From NCBI GenBank assembly GCA_046539325.1, contig JBKHHD010000002.1:32001-96000 (forward strand): a stretch of DNA of 64,000 bases, written 5' to 3'. This stretch comes from Candidatus Aenigmatarchaeota archaeon. Its GTDB lineage: Archaea; Aenigmatarchaeota; Aenigmatarchaeia; PWEA01. This document shows positions 25,291 through 62,827 of the stretch, piece by piece. Below the pieces are notes generated by a model. That model worked only from the letters and a program-made list of their open reading frames with translations, was not told the DNA's origin and did not search any database. Position numbers and translations under genes: made by a program. Each line of letters opens with the position of its first letter. Position 1 is the stretch's first letter.

Positions 25291-25391
25291 GGATGAGCTG
25301 TTATACGTCAAGTCTTGGAAACTTATGTTTCCAGTTTGAAATCCGAGAGGATTTCAAGACCCACCAGCCAACTAGGCTGGAATGGGTCTAT

Positions 25392-28347
<2,956 letters not shown>

Positions 28348-28492
28348 CATGGACGCATTCCAGCCTGGGCTAAAGGTGGATCTTGAAATCAAGGAACACA
28401 AACTTAGAAACAGAGGTTTCCAAGACTTGGCGTATAGCAGCTGAAGCTCTTTTCTCATAAGATTTAAATTGTTAGAATCAAATGTTCCTACT

Positions 28493-28946
28493 GTGGTGAG
28501 CTGGAGAGGGACCACCGGGATAGTTTGGATGAGGTTGTTTTCCTTCACAGGAAACACCCTTGTATTCCCGGAGGAAGCTCCTCCCACCCGTTGTGCTGTA
28601 AAAGTGCAACGAGGCCCAGGCTCGCAAGAGTCCGTCCTGAGAGGGAACGGAACAGGGAACAGAAACGATACCCCCGCGCTGGAGCGTTGAAAGCTGAGAA
28701 GGCACGGAGGGATGGAACGTACCCTGATCTGGGTGGTGCAAGACCAAATAGGCTCCGGGAAATGGATGTGCCTTGCACGTCGGTCTCTTGGAGCGGGTAG
28801 GTCGCTATTTGGAGTCCGTGAGGGCTTCAAACTTGGAAGCATCTGCTTCCGAGAAGATGAATGTCCCGAAGACCTGACATGGACGCGGACTTCGTCCACG
28901 TCGTTTTTGGGTCCGAACAGAAGGAGGGCTACTCCCAGCACACCAC
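28493..28946 (+). ncRNA. rnpB: RNase P RNA
   Basis: P1 GTGGTG..GCTGG/CCAGC..CACCAC, CR-I GAGGAAGCTCCTCCCACC, AACAGAAAC, GGTGCAAG, CR-V AACAGAAGGAGGGCTA; TTTAAA promoter at 28463. Confidence 0.9.
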
Positions 28947-41047: not shown

Positions 41048-41189
41048 GCCGGGGTAGCGAAGCCAGGTCCACCGCGCCAGCTTGGAGCTTTCGACTGAAA
41101 AGCTGGTGGGCGTCAAGGGGCCAAAGGACGTAGTCGAAGACTACGTCGTTCCAACGAAGCCCGCGTGGGTTCAAATCCCACCCCCGGCG
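41048..41189 (+). tRNA. tRNA-Ser(GGA) with introns at 37/38 (41088-41100) and in the variable arm (about 41117-41158)
   Basis: GCCGGGG/CCCCGGC acceptor; CCAGC-TTGGAG|A-GCTGG; BHB TTGG/CTGA. Spliced variable arm GGGC-GTCAA-GCCC. Confidence 0.88.
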
Positions 41190-58037: not shown

Positions 58038-58820
58038 ATGGAATTTGAAAAGATTGAGGAGGACGACAAGAAGCTTAAATTTGTTACAAAGGATACAAAT
58101 CCAGCTATGATGAACGCTTTGAGAAGGATCTCGATGAACTACATTCCTGTGCTTGCAATAGAGGACGTCGGAGTAAAGGAAAACAGTTCGCCGATATTCG
58201 ACGAAGTTATAGCCCAGAGGCTGGGGCAGGTACCGCTTGTCTTTGATCCAGACAAGTTTACGTTGAAGGGAGAATGCGACTGTGAAGACGGCTGTCCTAA
58301 CTGTGAGGTTGACTTCACGTTTGAAGGCGAAGGACTTGGAAGGCTTTACTCGAAGGACCTCGTCTGTGAGACGGGCGATATCGAGGTACTATATGACGAG
58401 ATACCTATAACAGAGATGGATGAAAATCAGAGGGTCGAGCTTGAAGCAACCGCAGTATTATCGAAGGGAAAAGATCACTCGAAACATCAGGCAGCTATTT
58501 CCTCGTACCAGTACTACCCTATAATCGATATAGACAACGATGAGCTCACGAAAGAAGAAAAGGGTCGCTGCGTCGAGGTGTGCCCAAAGGATGTTTTTGA
58601 GCTCGATGGCGGCGACCTGAAGGTTTCAGAGGAAAAGAAATGTACTGTATGCAAAGAATGCGTCAACGAAGTGGATACAGGCGTAGTAGTTACAGGCGAC
58701 GAGGAGAAGTTCATATTCACCATAGAGTCTACCTGTTCACTAAGCCCCCAAGAAATAATTGAGAAGGCCGCTGACATACTTGAGAAGAAGTCCGAGAAGG
58801 TAGTCGAAAAGTTAAGCTAG
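58038..58820 (+). CDS. rpoD: RNA polymerase subunit D (Rpo3) with ferredoxin-like domain
   Basis: NALRR, NSS..FDE..A.RLG, H.K, CVEVCP...CTVCKEC. Confidence 0.94.
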   Translation: MEFEKIEEDDKKLKFVTKDTNPAMMNALRRISMNYIPVLAIEDVGVKENSSPIFDEVIAQRLGQVPLVFDPDKFTLKGECDCEDGCPNCEVDFTFEGEGLGRLYSKDLVCETGDIEVLYDEIPITEMDENQRVELEATAVLSKGKDHSKHQAAISSYQYYPIIDIDNDELTKEEKGRCVEVCPKDVFELDGGDLKVSEEKKCTVCKECVNEVDTGVVVTGDEEKFIFTIESTCSLSPQEIIEKAADILEKKSEKVVEKLS

Positions 58821-58962
58821 CGGGGGTAACCAAGCGGTCAAGGTAAAGATACGACTAAAGGTGCAGGACTTAAGCTCTCAGCTTAAGTATTGAGGCCCAT
58901 TGGGCGATGATAAGAAATCCTGTGGCTTAGTGCCTTCGTCGGTTCGAATCCGGCCCCCCGCA
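58820..58962 (+). tRNA. tRNA-Leu(TAA) with introns at 21/22 (58842-58858) and 37/38 (58875-58916)
   Basis: GCGGGGG/CCCCCGC acceptor; BHBs GGTC/GACT and CTTA/TAAG; long variable arm. Confidence 0.9.
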
Positions 58963-60378: not shown

Positions 60379-61773
60379 TTGAAGAAGATTTTACCCCTCC
60401 TGTCGGCATTCATTCTATTGTCGATCTCAATGCCTACAGCAGCTGCACACCTGGAAGTAAGTTTCGAGGAGGAGGGTTCCTGTAAGATTTTGCCGCATAC
60501 ATACGAGATAAATATAACAAACACACACGATTCAGAGGATCTGATCCGGCTTAGCAGACCACGCGAGTTCTCAAGATGGATGTCTCTGTCGAGAAGTATT
60601 ATGAGGATACAGGCAGGCGAGACCGAAACAACTGAGTTAACTATTGAAGCTCCGAGAAACGTTGAACTTGGCGAATACCAGACTAACTTTTCTATATTTT
60701 CCGAGGACTACGAAGATGTTTCAACAACCGGAGAACTTTGCTTCATAGTTCTTAGAGACTATTCAATGATCGTCAGGGACTTTGCCGTAGACAAAGAGGA
60801 ATACGGACCCATGGACCAGGTTAACTTCTCTGTAACAGTTGAGAACGACGGTACAAAGGACTTCGACGACGGCGAGTTCAGAATAGAAGTAACTAAGGAA
60901 GGTGAGCAAATTGCAACTGATCTCGAGAAGTTCGAACTGGAAACAGGGAAAGGTAAAACTGTGGCCAGTTCAATAAACCTCAAGGAACATCAGGCACCAG
61001 GAACCTACGACGTAATGTACGAGGTAAGAGGTGCTGGCCACAAGATACAGTCCGGTGAAGCTAGCTTTGAAGTAATGGAGATGGCCAACTACGAGATAAG
61101 CGAAGAGTCGGATGGAAGATACATCATAAGAACAAACACAATAAATGCAGAAAACAGAGGCAATATATTAGAACAAAAGGAAATAAATAGAACTGCAGTA
61201 TTTCCTTTATCGCTGCTGACCACGGCCGAGGGGGCAGATGTGACCCGGGAAGGTCTCCATACAGTTTACAGCTGGAACATTGAACTTGAACCAGGTCAGT
61301 CCACACAGCTAAGTTATCAGATAAACTACTGGCCTCTGTACATTCTAATAATACTTCTGGCTCTCATAGCGTTCAGGCTGTTCCTTTACATGAAAGCACC
61401 TGTCGTGAAGAAGGAGGTAGTCAAAAGCGAAATATCCGAAGACAAAAGGGTCCTCACCATATCGCTTCACGTCAAAAACCGGTTCTTCGGAAAAGCCAAA
61501 AACGTTATACTGGAGGACTCTGTGCTTTCCGTGACAAGAGTTCTGGACGAGTTCGATACGGTCAAACCAAACATTGAAAGGAAGGACGACGAAACAACGC
61601 TCAGGTGGAAGCTTGGTGAGATGTTGGCCGGAGACGATAGAGTTATACATTACAAGGTCAAAGTTCTTGTTGAATCCGTTGATGAGCTTGTCTTTCCTCC
61701 AGCCAAGGTAAGGGGTGCAGTAGGAAAGAGAACTTTCGAAAGATCTTCTTCCAAGGTAAAGCTTGGTGTTTAA
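60379..61773 (+). CDS. Secreted Ig/CARDB-like surface protein with TM and cytoplasmic beta domain
   Basis: Signal peptide, 'VENDG', 'PGTY.V', TM 'WPLYILIILLALIAF', C-terminal DUF11-like fold. Confidence 0.6.
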   Translation: MKKILPLLSAFILLSISMPTAAAHLEVSFEEEGSCKILPHTYEINITNTHDSEDLIRLSRPREFSRWMSLSRSIMRIQAGETETTELTIEAPRNVELGEYQTNFSIFSEDYEDVSTTGELCFIVLRDYSMIVRDFAVDKEEYGPMDQVNFSVTVENDGTKDFDDGEFRIEVTKEGEQIATDLEKFELETGKGKTVASSINLKEHQAPGTYDVMYEVRGAGHKIQSGEASFEVMEMANYEISEESDGRYIIRTNTINAENRGNILEQKEINRTAVFPLSLLTTAEGADVTREGLHTVYSWNIELEPGQSTQLSYQINYWPLYILIILLALIAFRLFLYMKAPVVKKEVVKSEISEDKRVLTISLHVKNRFFGKAKNVILEDSVLSVTRVLDEFDTVKPNIERKDDETTLRWKLGEMLAGDDRVIHYKVKVLVESVDELVFPPAKVRGAVGKRTFERSSSKVKLGV

Positions 61774-61822
61774 CGTTACTCCAAAGAAAAGATTTAAAAA
61801 GTTTGGATTCAACGACTAGTAA

Positions 61823-61938
61823 GGCTGGCGGCCAAAGCGGAGGGGCAACTCCCGTACCCATCCGAACACGGAAGAAAAGTCCTCCAGCGATTTGGTCAGT
61901 ATCCTCAATCCGAGGAGAACTCCAGGACGCTGCCAGCC
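61823..61938 (+). rRNA. rrf: 5S rRNA (unlinked from 16S-23S)
   Basis: GGCTGGCGGC/GCTGCCAGCC stem; CCCGTACCCATCCGAACACGGAAG. Confidence 0.92.
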
Positions 61939-62002
61939 GCTATTTATTCTCCGGGCTAAGCATAAATACTTAAAAGGTTTGTCACAAGAATGTTATGTCG
62001 TT

Positions 62003-62100
62003 GCCGCGATGGTGTAGCGGCTCAACTCTCGAAGAGAGGGGGCCAAGCATAGAGCCCTGTCGAGGCTCTGACCCGGGTTCAAATCCCGGTCGCGGCGCCA
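62003..62100 (+). tRNA. tRNA-Asp(GTC) with D-loop intron (21/22: 62025-62046), encoded CCA
   Basis: GCCGCGA/TCGCGGC acceptor; GAGCC-CTGTCGA-GGCTC; BHB GGCT/GGCC with CAA and AAG bulges. Confidence 0.9.
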
Positions 62101-62115
62101 TTCCCGAGGTATAAG

Positions 62116-62319
62116 ATGTCAGTATCCAGCTGCCCAAGTCTACAGGATAATAAGGAGGAGTGCAGCTGCGCGTATTCAGGCTGTCCCAGAAAAGGCAAGT
62201 GTTGCGAATATATCAGGTACCATAAGAAAAGAGGAGAAGTCCCTGGTTGTTTGTTTCCCGAAGGGGCAGAGGGAAGCTACGACAGGTCCATAGAAAGGTT
62301 CGTGAAGGCAGTGAGCTAA
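62116..62319 (+). CDS. DUF6485-like small Cys-rich protein
   Basis: C.C.Y.GCPRKGKCCE...YH....VPGC.FP...E.SYDRSIE.F. Confidence 0.7.
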   Translation: MSVSSCPSLQDNKEECSCAYSGCPRKGKCCEYIRYHKKRGEVPGCLFPEGAEGSYDRSIERFVKAVS

Positions 62320-62323
62320 GCAG

Positions 62324-62443
62324 GGGTCCGTAGCTCAGCCTGGCAGAGCACTGGGCTTTTAACTTAATATGTTAAAAGAGCTAGACGTTATGTCGATGAT
62401 GAAAGAAACCCAGGAGTCGCGGGTTCAAATCCCGTCGGACCCA
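62324..62443 (+). tRNA. tRNA-Lys(TTT) with 37/38 intron (62362-62407)
   Basis: GGGTCCG/CGGACCC acceptor; CTGGG-CTTTTA|A-CCCAG; BHB CTTT/AAAG. Confidence 0.92.
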
Positions 62444-62581
62444 TAACAACCCATTCGTCAATAGTCTATAAAAAAACACCAAAACCTTTATAAACGTTAA
62501 GTTATAATGGAGTTTACCAGCTTATGTGCTTTTCTCCGAAGATAGGGTGCGATATTTCGTATAAAATGTGATGGGGAGATT

Positions 62582-62827
62582 ATGGCAAAAGACTACAGCG
62601 TTACAGACCACAAGAGAGTACCGGAACATGAGGTTTTGGGGGACGAGGAAAAGGAAGAGCTTCTTGAAGAGCTGGGTGTAAAGGAACAGCAGCTTCCAAA
62701 GATATACGACACTGACCCCGTTGTCAAAGAGATAGACGCTTCAGTCGGTGACGTTCTTAAAATCAAAAGAAACAGTCTAACAGCAGGCAAGGCTTTGTAC
62801 TATAGGCTAGTAATAGAGAAAAAATAA
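62582..62827 (+). CDS. rpoH: RNA polymerase subunit H (Rpo5)
   Basis: H..VP.H, QLPKI..DP, GDV.KI.R.S.TAG...YYR.V. Confidence 0.96.
   Translation: MAKDYSVTDHKRVPEHEVLGDEEKEELLEELGVKEQQLPKIYDTDPVVKEIDASVGDVLKIKRNSLTAGKALYYRLVIEKK

Follow-up and report, generated by a model that had tools for sequence, protein, structure and literature searches.

Does a tRNA intron guide the modification of its own host? The question is raised by the pre-tRNA-Lys(UUU) gene in the window, by which we mean the whole 64,000-nt stretch of Candidatus Aenigmatarchaeota archaeon DNA analysed here: its 37/38 intron carries an antisense copy of the host's anticodon loop next to elements that resemble the boxes of C/D guide RNAs. 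An earlier annotation made from the letters alone (below, the sequence-only reading) had proposed that this intron is an independent replicate of a self-methylating design that it also saw in the tRNA-Leu(UAA) intron of the same stretch. The module is best read as a single-kink-turn (single-K-turn) variant of the guide carried by the tRNA-Trp intron, and we put the probability that the window intron belongs to a family of single-K-turn box C'/D'-type guides directing anticodon-loop 2'-O-methylation of tRNA-Lys(UUU) at roughly 0.6. The target would be U34 in most lineages and C32 in some; that the module itself exists, as a homologous unit throughout the class, we hold to be highly probable.

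Anatomy of the intron module

The source genome (labelled G000), that of an uncultured archaeon known from metagenomes, is 715 kb in size and 91% complete. The window includes genes for RNase P RNA and for 16S and 23S rRNA of archaeal type, and a 5S rRNA - tRNA-Asp - tRNA-Lys cluster lies towards its end. The tRNA-Lys gene is matched over its whole length by Rfam family RF00005 (57.6 bits) with a 47-nt insert past position 37, and aragorn, run with introns allowed, calls Lys(ttt) with a 46-nt intron; in tRNA numbering, C32 falls on 62356, U34 on 62358, A37 on 62361 and A38 on 62408. The elements discussed below are collected in Table 1.

The sequence-only reading had described a segment complementary to C32-A37 and two intron bases, followed by AG, a box CTAG(A) at 62381, a GAC/GTC hairpin and a perfect ATGATGA. 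All of these elements are present where it had placed them, and the complementarity is exact, amounting to eight contiguous Watson-Crick pairs. The putative guide thus sits in the canonical anticodon-loop intron and faces the anticodon region of its own host, as does the pre-tRNA-Trp-type guide. When the intron was shuffled 200,000 times at constant mononucleotide composition, an 8-nt antisense arose with P = 0.0044, ATGATGA with P = 0.0115 and both together with P = 3.5e-5. The box C consensus RUGAUGA is satisfied in the window, and across relatives only RU-GA is conserved. Judged by its sequence, the module resembles a box C'/D' K-turn in which a hairpin closes the canonical stem; the 46-nt intron holds one C-like and one D-like element and no second C/D motif, and its layout is therefore not bipartite. 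An H/ACA-type guide was ruled out, as the target lies in a continuous 8-bp duplex that leaves no pocket, and no ACA stands at the expected place.

Table 1. Coordinates of the tRNA-Lys(UUU) gene, of its intron module and of related elements in the source genome (five-digit positions refer to the window; C1, C3 and C6 are contigs of G000; a slash within a sequence of the splicing bulges marks the splice site)
Feature	Coordinates	Strand	Remarks
Pre-tRNA-Lys(UUU)	62324-62443	+	5' exon 62324-62361, intron 62362-62407, 3' exon 62408-62443
Target strand	62356-62363	+	C32 U33 U34 U35 U36 A37 plus intron +1, +2 (A, C)
Linker loop TTAATAT, 7 nt	62364-62370	+	Differs among the three closest copies (TTATTAT, TTAT)
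Antisense (putative guide) GTTAAAAG	62371-62378	+	Exact reverse complement of 62356-62363, 8 contiguous Watson-Crick pairs
Spacer AG, 2 nt	62379-62380	+	Between antisense and D'-like box
Degenerate D'-like box CUA	62381-62383	+	Sequence-only reading: CTAG, 62381-84; putative K-turn 1n = A83, 2n = U82
K-turn C-stem hairpin GAC(G)/(T)GTC	62384-62394	+	GAC 62384-86, GTC 62392-94; 4-bp stem; loop TTA or GTTAT
3-nt bulge GAU (K-turn L1-L3)	62395-62397	+	G, A, U as candidate L1, L2, L3
C' box ATGATGA, perfect RUGAUGA	62396-62402	+	Candidate sheared-pair bases G98, A99
Splicing conformer	62402-62408	+	AAAG 62402-05 and C32-U35 form the central helix (4 bp) of the bulge-helix-bulge
Splicing bulges	62406-08 (3'); 62360-62 (5')	+	3' AA/A; 5' U36 A37/A; read from sequence
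Sister module, tRNA-Leu(UAA) anticodon-loop intron	58875-58916	+	tRNA 58820-58962, two introns
tRNA-Trp intron module (C34)	G000:C1:116084-116240	-	NN-TTGA-stem-GAT-GA
Elongator-type tRNA-Met(CAU) intron module (C34)	G000:C3:32387-32516	+	NN-TTGA-stem-GAT-GA
Sole strict C/D sRNA candidate	G000:C6:23517-23564	+	ATGATGA-11 nt-CTGA-CAG-AGAAGA-13 nt-CTGA

Conservation and covariation across the class

The genomes of the class measure 0.4-2 Mb. A first search of 61 related genomes recovered tRNA-Asp - tRNA-Lys(UUU) loci whose introns measure 40-212 nt; in each of them [G/C]TTAAAAG precedes a D-like box, a stem and a C-like box that contains GA, and some have a perfect 'AG CTGA'. Our counts come from a sample that is blind to the feature: a pattern made of the D-arm and a CTTTTAA loop, run over 371 genomes of the class, matched 95 of them, once each, and its reversed control gave no match. 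Among these 95 tRNA-Lys(UUU) genes, 59 have the module, 25 lack a 37/38 intron and 11 have an intron devoid of the module, which places the module in 59 of the 70 intron-bearing genes and in 15 of the 20 sampled families. The three totals were obtained by hand reading and equal those produced by code, though the code misplaced two genes, one (G263) scored as intron-less through a chance pairing and one (G091) scored as intron-bearing through a 27.43 mismatch, both of which were corrected by hand. An initial pattern scan (CTTTTAA...TTAAAAGNNYNRA) was equally frequent in its reversed control, the genomes being AT-rich, and provided leads only, and a similarity search with intron-less tRNA-Lys over 301 class genomes cross-matched many other tRNAs and was excluded from the counts. 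Finally, a metagenome scan for introns of family f1 returned 3 contigs, which repeat the sequences of the G002, G003 and G006 type.

The layout of the module comprises the antisense, a spacer of 2 or 4 nt, a D'-like box, an abutting stem that covaries, a bulge ending in RU, and GA. Positions 32-37 are paired with the antisense in 52 of 52 tabulated genes, and the pair between intron position +2 and the antisense is exchanged between C-G (21 genes), G-C (19), A-T (4), T-G (3) and G-T (2), so that it is kept in 49 of 51. The remaining 7 of the 59 module genes (G082, G271, G107, G165, G213, G250 and G328) were omitted from this tabulation and from the comparison of nucleotide 39 reported below because their antisense has five A's and its pairing needs a bulge or a mismatch. 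Judged by these exchanges, the antisense duplex is under selection.

To score the K-turn geometry, a stem was built from the base right after the curated box and its 3' side was required to be closed by exactly three unpaired bases and GA. The resulting stem has a mean length of 4.54 bp and reaches at least 5 bp in 24 of the 59 genes; in the control, in which the register was shifted by 1 to 4 nt, the mean falls to 1.7-2.6 bp and stems of at least 5 bp are found in 0 to 10 genes of 59. Stems of at least 2 bp within 60 nt are present in 53 of the 59 genes, and in these 53 the bulge shows A (42 genes) or G (9) at L2 and U (47) at L3, an RU that was not imposed by the search. RU is what precedes GA in box C. 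Furthermore, position 4b.4n, where the base ahead of the second D' position faces the C' strand, is paired in 38 of 50 genes, a count reached by 2 of 5000 permutations, and position 3b.3n holds 17 U.U and 20 standard pairs. The stems are unrelated between families and yet complementary within each (GACA/UGUC, CCGGAU/GUCUGG, GACCGUCC/GGAUGGUU, GCGAC/GUCGC, UGGCC/GGCCA); the scoring also picks a few spurious long-range or wrong stems, for instance in G143, G218, G297, G082 and G271.

The tRNA-Lys genes of close relatives vary around this theme. In the sister genome G001 (loci L007, C2:77014-77135, and L155, C2:68973-69356), tRNA-Lys(CUU) has an intron with the antisense TTAAGAG, which compensates for C34, and an irregular K-turn. 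The tRNA-Lys(UUU) gene of the same genome contains an unrelated 67-nt intron with no module, and the tRNA-Lys(CUU) gene of G000 (C2:102208-102311) a 31-nt intron that has no antisense and keeps the GGAAAGAA tail.

Spacer length and target register

The D' box conforms to NNGA in 50 of the 59 module genes (UUGA 27, CUGA 11, UCGA 5, CCGA 3, UAGA 3, GUGA 1). The nine others comprise four NNAA boxes (G005, G008, G260 and G200), two NNUA boxes (in family f13) and three CUA boxes, the last being those of the window and of its two closest relatives, G002 and G003. The sequence-only reading had called the window's D box non-consensus, as this comparison bears out, and had pointed to orthologous introns as the place to look for a CTGA consensus; such a consensus is found there in the form of YUGA (UUGA, CUGA and UCGA in the numbers just given), at the same 2-nt spacing.

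The length of the spacer, counted from the base that pairs with C32 to the box, is 2 nt in 50 of the 59 genes and 4 nt in 9, and none was assigned a 3-nt spacer. In box C/D guides, the methylated nucleotide is the one that pairs with the fifth position upstream of the D or D' box. By this N+5 rule the -5 position lies opposite U34 with a 2-nt spacer and opposite C32 with a 4-nt spacer, and a 3-nt spacer would select U33; among the relatives with an NNGA box, -5 corresponds to U34 in 43 genes and to C32 in 7. The first spacer base of the 4-nt genes is C in 9 of 9 and pairs with G31, which extends the duplex beyond the presumed target in the way that C32 as target would demand, and the equivalent pairing with G31 is seen in 31 of 50 genes of the 2-nt group. 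The 4-nt spacer occurs in three families (f13, f22 and f24; loci L024, L157, L123, L122, L163, L165, L160, L164 and L166 in genomes G028, G172, G082, G271, G076, G164, G212, G288 and G367), and since f22 and f24 also hold the 2-nt form, the switch has occurred more than once. Resting on assignments made by hand in related genes, this pattern of spacer and register is suggestive and is not a statistical proof.

Two conformers of the precursor

In the minimum free energy (MFE) fold of the pre-tRNA (-44.0 kcal/mol, z = -3.84), the 8-bp antisense duplex prolongs the anticodon stem to an uninterrupted helix of 13 bp, in which the 5' splice site is buried. Archaeal tRNA splicing requires a bulge-helix-bulge motif, and a fold constrained to this motif reaches -36.3 kcal/mol, leaving the antisense conformer 7.7 kcal/mol more stable; the inner helix h' of the bulge-helix-bulge is weak and consists only of C62363-G62401. 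Splicing therefore depends on a complementarity other than the antisense: its helix uses a different AAAG (62402-05), and the antisense competes with the splicing motif. The AAAGA[A/T]A tail is kept in families f1 and f8. The precursor thus has a guide-duplex conformer and a splicing conformer as alternatives, and mutually exclusive conformers of this kind are likewise a property of the tRNA-Trp intron guide.

Furthermore, splicing would leave a partner for the antisense in 35 of 52 genes, in which A38 and N39 can pair with it; the window is among them, and its spliced tRNA (A38, C39) offers an equally good match. The excised intron may therefore also act in trans.

The same design in other tRNAs and the protein machinery

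The tRNA-Leu(UAA) gene of the window, which was not called by the Rfam search at gathering thresholds, has in its anticodon-loop intron the antisense AGCTTAAG (58880-87), a spacer TA, a D' box TTGA (58890-93), a stem GCCC/GGGC, a bulge GAT and GATAA, and its -5 position pairs with U34 (58871). The Trp and Met introns of G000 are organised in the same way, so that in all three the antisense to the host's own loop precedes, in this order, 2 nt of spacer, UUGA, a stem, GAU and GA, and position 34 lies opposite -5. A further antisense in the Trp intron, GGATGT, matches the anticodon stem on its 3' side. Together with tRNA-Lys, four introns of G000 share the single-motif layout, and the proposal of an independent replicate therefore gains in that Lys is one of four instances (Lys, Leu(UAA), Met, Trp); the 'self-methylating' part of it is putative, and the layout provides one K-turn, not the two that all described box C/D RNAs have.

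G000 encodes fibrillarin (PF01269, 273.3 bits), Nop5 (PF01798, 202.4 bits) and L7Ae (PF01248, 106.8 bits), the genes of the first two lying side by side and that of L7Ae elsewhere. Of the 371 class genomes, 350 have a fibrillarin that scores above the cut-off, and because it is near-universal in the class, a phyletic contrast between fibrillarin and the module is impossible.

Points against a guide and the atypical box of the window copy

Several observations weigh against a guide function, both in the family as a whole and in the window copy. With 8 bp, the antisense is short by the standard of archaeal guides. No significant fold is predicted for the intron once excised (-3.2 kcal/mol, z = 0.41), and the thermodynamic fold places part of the C' box in another hairpin. 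No C/D or sRNA family of Rfam was found over 61700-62700 at a relaxed threshold; the only C/D-type match in that interval, to SNORD94 (E = 4.2, below the gathering score), was taken as chance. A strict pattern for a complete C/D sRNA finds a single candidate in the 715-kb genome and none in the reversed control, and by this strict pattern stand-alone guides in G000 appear to be few or off consensus. Spacers and D' boxes were assigned by hand, in related genes, and the relatedness of the genes also means that the module counts overstate the number of independent events. In addition, the irregular K-turn of the G001 tRNA-Lys(CUU) intron can be read with a 3-nt spacer. Published biochemistry adds a further caution: a reconstituted Pyrococcus 'hemi' RNA with a single K-turn is described as active and not site-specific, both motifs being needed for pinpoint specificity, and the same source holds that natural C/D RNAs conserve the bipartite layout absolutely (PMC1635284).

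The box of the window copy is one base short. Aligned by the abutting stem, the window reads AG-CUA/GAC...GUC/GAU/GAUGA (slashes separate the segments), where relatives have NN-CCGA/stem or NN-CCAA/stem (CCGA and CCAA in G004-G007, CCAA/GACA in G008) and the other introns of G000 have NN-UUGA/stem; in structural terms the G of GA is gone, and the window departs from the box D/D' consensus. The K-turn would accordingly open with G98.A83; A99.U82 would stand where the second sheared pair belongs, followed by a U.C mismatch, at which U62400 may alternatively be bulged out and G62401 pair with C62381. The sequence-only reading had assigned the box the same U34 register as in the Leu intron, and this holds when counting starts from 62381, the first base of the box, with -3 at C32 and -5 at U34; counted from the kink, -5 falls on U35, and counted from GA 62384-85, on U33. 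A K-loop reading, with D' = UAGA (62382-85) sheared with G98 and A99 and a U33 register, was rated lower because its only closing pairs, C86-G95 and G87-C94, are lost in G003 (A at G87) and G002 (U), whereas GAC/GUC is kept in 3 of 3 copies.

K-turns with A.U or A.A at 2b.2n are known, and the A.A form is bound by L7Ae (PMC2790904, PMC3985660, in the parts that concern this position), so that the window element may still fold. The three CUA copies differ only in their two loops and the spacer, with antisense, CUA, stem, bulge and AUGAUGA identical; the hairpin stem of the window is retained in G002 and G003 with a different loop. This conservation is weak evidence because the copies are 93-98% identical. 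Judged by its box, the window copy is the least convincing, atypical member of the family, with a register uncertain by one base, and that it would methylate exactly U34 we hold to be somewhat doubtful.

Model and alternative explanations

In the course of events that we infer, the antisense would pair with the anticodon loop, extend the anticodon stem to 13 bp and hide the 5' splice site, while the D'-like and C' boxes flanking the hairpin and the 3-nt bulge would form a K-turn bound by L7Ae. Nop5-fibrillarin would be recruited and would 2'-O-methylate the nucleotide paired five positions upstream of D'; the RNA would then refold into the bulge-helix-bulge through AAAG 62402-05 for splicing, and the excised intron could also act in trans. 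If the module is site-specific, the covalent hairpin link and the anticodon stem must replace the second anchor, and we suggest that the hairpin link to the substrate, with the stacked anticodon stem and tRNA body, could stand in for the missing K-turn. A wider proposal, which we advance tentatively, is that the class keeps anticodon-loop introns in Lys-UUU, Leu-UAA, Met and Trp because each would be a one-K-turn guide methylating its own host, with link and tRNA body replacing the second K-turn and two-base insertions or deletions in the spacer switching the target between U34 and C32.

The window copy could instead be a decaying relic of a module that is functional in relatives, in which the loss of the D' G in G000, G002 and G003 would have left no productive ribonucleoprotein (RNP), or one aimed at a neighbouring site, with the antisense kept for folding. 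Such decay would explain a CUA box where all 56 other module genes have a 4-nt box, and it has company in the CCAA boxes of G005 and G008, in the irregular element of G001 tRNA-Lys(CUU), in the swapped-out tRNA-Lys(UUU) intron of G001 and in the tRNA-Lys(CUU) intron of G000, which is without antisense. It is at odds with the restriction of differences among the CUA copies to loops and spacer (three metagenome contigs repeat the same variants, and the closeness of the copies makes this a weak argument), and with the A.U pair at 2b.2n, which is a known foldable K-turn variant (PMC2790904, in its relevant part). We consider this explanation unlikely. It is still less probable that the module is a folding or timing device that methylates nothing, in which L7Ae and the 13-bp helix would mask the anticodon loop and the 5' splice site and thereby order modification and splicing or stabilise the precursor. 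The greater stability of the antisense conformer, which must be resolved before splicing, fits this idea, as does the fact that a single-K-turn layout is not known, from the parts of PMC1635284 that bear on it, to give site-specific methylation; yet it leaves unexplained why spacers have 2 or 4 nt, with none of 3 nt seen, why in all 9 longer spacers the added base can pair with G31, and why the layout recurs on three tRNAs with reported position-34 C/D targets.

A guide for another RNA, such as rRNA, that merely rides in the intron seems very improbable: after excision, archaeal tRNA introns may persist as stable circles (PMC7994747, PMC3491384, as far as these sources bear on it) and an 8-mer has many possible matches, but the antisense covers intron positions +1 and +2 with covariation, changes with the anticodon in tRNA-Lys(CUU), and in Leu, Met and Trp matches the loop of its own host in each case. 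Chance resemblance in an A-rich intron would draw on the 6.5% of shuffled introns that show a 6-nt antisense to positions 32-37 and on the need of the bulge-helix-bulge for some loop complementarity, the splicing helix itself needing AAAG. The splicing helix uses the other AAAG, however, the joint probability of 8-mer and ATGATGA is the 3.5e-5 given above, and the module recurs with covariation in 59 of 95 genes and 15 families, so that we judge this explanation refuted by the comparative data and its residual probability negligible. A single-K-turn guide acting on its own host is thus the reading that we prefer.

Implications

If this reading is true, tRNA introns in genome-reduced archaea would have a selective reason to exist, and intron-encoded guides would go beyond the textbook tRNA-Trp to a family of tRNAs that includes tRNA-Lys(UUU). 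A single K-turn would then direct site-specific methylation when guide and substrate are one molecule, which contradicts the view that the bipartite architecture is indispensable; on the wider proposal above, its RNP would be a 'half-mer' C/D RNP without natural precedent, and guide-directed ribose methylation of the tRNA-Lys wobble uridine would likewise be a first. It would also predict Um34-type nucleotides and Cm32 in organisms whose tRNA modification is otherwise unknown, and the spacers of 2 and 4 nt together with the D' variants (NNGA, NNAA, NNUA, CUA) would constitute a natural mutational series for the N+5 ruler. The value lies in the conserved family rather than in the window copy.

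Other features of the window and of related genes

Many tRNA-Lys(UUU) genes of families f4, f12, f24, f29 and f34 (loci L143-L145, L149-L153, L156, L159-L164 and L167-L171) contain a further intron in the T-loop, after GGTTCGAA/GGTTCAAA, which often holds inverted repeats of the aagcctttt...aaaaggctt type. In the window, a type II tRNA at 41048-41189 (Ser-GGA according to aragorn) has a short anticodon-loop insert with CTGA and no antisense to its own loop, and a second insert in the region of the variable arm; it falls outside the guide design. Across the 64 kb of the window, ATGATGA is found 13 times on the plus strand and never on the minus strand, probably owing to gene orientation and codon content. 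The RNase P RNA gene (28496-28943; 85.7 bits, gathering score 84) follows the 23S rRNA on its downstream side at a distance of about 140 nt (stretch 25387-28943), and the 5S rRNA, which adjoins tRNA-Asp and tRNA-Lys, is 33 kb away from the 23S rRNA and RNase P RNA.

Comparison with known systems

The C/D RNA in the tRNA-Trp intron is, in the relevant part of a 2014 review, the unique example of an intron that guides the modification of its own tRNA (PMC4090602), and in the literature outside subscription journals and supplements we found no description of a guide in a tRNA-Lys intron, of which an earlier report may exist. The pre-tRNA-Trp guide (Haloferax volcanii; Pyrococcus sR50) resembles the module in its seat in a 37/38 intron, its antisense to the host's own anticodon region and its aim at position 34, as far as PMC4090602 and PMC7994747 describe it, and the machinery would be the same, L7Ae, Nop5 and fibrillarin being predicted here from genes. 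It differs in that, in the same descriptions, it is a full sRNA that has both the C/D and the C'/D' motif and carries one guide for C34 and another for U39, whereas here there is one hairpin-closed K-turn with one guide, and in its host, which here is tRNA-Lys(UUU) with a wobble uridine as the putative target. The intron of elongator tRNA-Met in Nanoarchaeum equitans comes close in another way, having a C/D-like element in a non-Trp tRNA of a tiny genome; as presented in the pertinent part of PMC3491384, this candidate C/D sRNA is a stable RNA of 66 nt whose D box fits the consensus and whose C box nearly does; no target register is given there, and its host is not tRNA-Lys. G000 also has a module in its tRNA-Met intron.

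In its economy the module recalls the engineered 'hemi' C/D RNA of Hardin and Batey (2006), which likewise has one K-turn and one guide and assembles with L7Ae, Nop5 and fibrillarin (PMC1635284, the assembly experiments). That RNA is synthetic and non-specific, unlike the natural module, which is covalently joined to its substrate by a hairpin and continues into the anticodon stem. The replacement of the second sheared pair in the CUA, NNUA and NNAA boxes has its counterpart in Kt-23, with A.U in Thermus thermophilus and A.A in Thelohania solenopsae; Kt-23 is ribosomal, however, and in the account of it in PMC2790904 the A.U form folded or not according to the 3b.3n pair, which in the window would be U.C or a bulged U.

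The proposed chemistry and position, wobble uridine included, are those of trans-acting C/D sRNAs for position 34, which by contrast are stand-alone, bipartite and act on a separate molecule (PMC7994747, PMC7668247, in the sections on this position); in those sections none is described for tRNA-Lys(UUU). Um, s2Um and mchm5Um wobble uridines occur in archaeal tRNAs, and in S. acidocaldarius a trans sRNA is predicted for U34 of tRNA-Gln, where methylation was observed (both from the corresponding part of PMC7668247). In Pyrococcus, as far as the targets are given in PMC7994747, trans C/D sRNAs address position 34 of Leu-CAA, Leu-UAA, Met and Trp; the Leu(UAA), Met and Trp tRNAs whose introns carry the module in G000 are thus tRNAs whose position 34 is a reported C/D target in Pyrococcus, and tRNA-Lys(UUU) is the addition.

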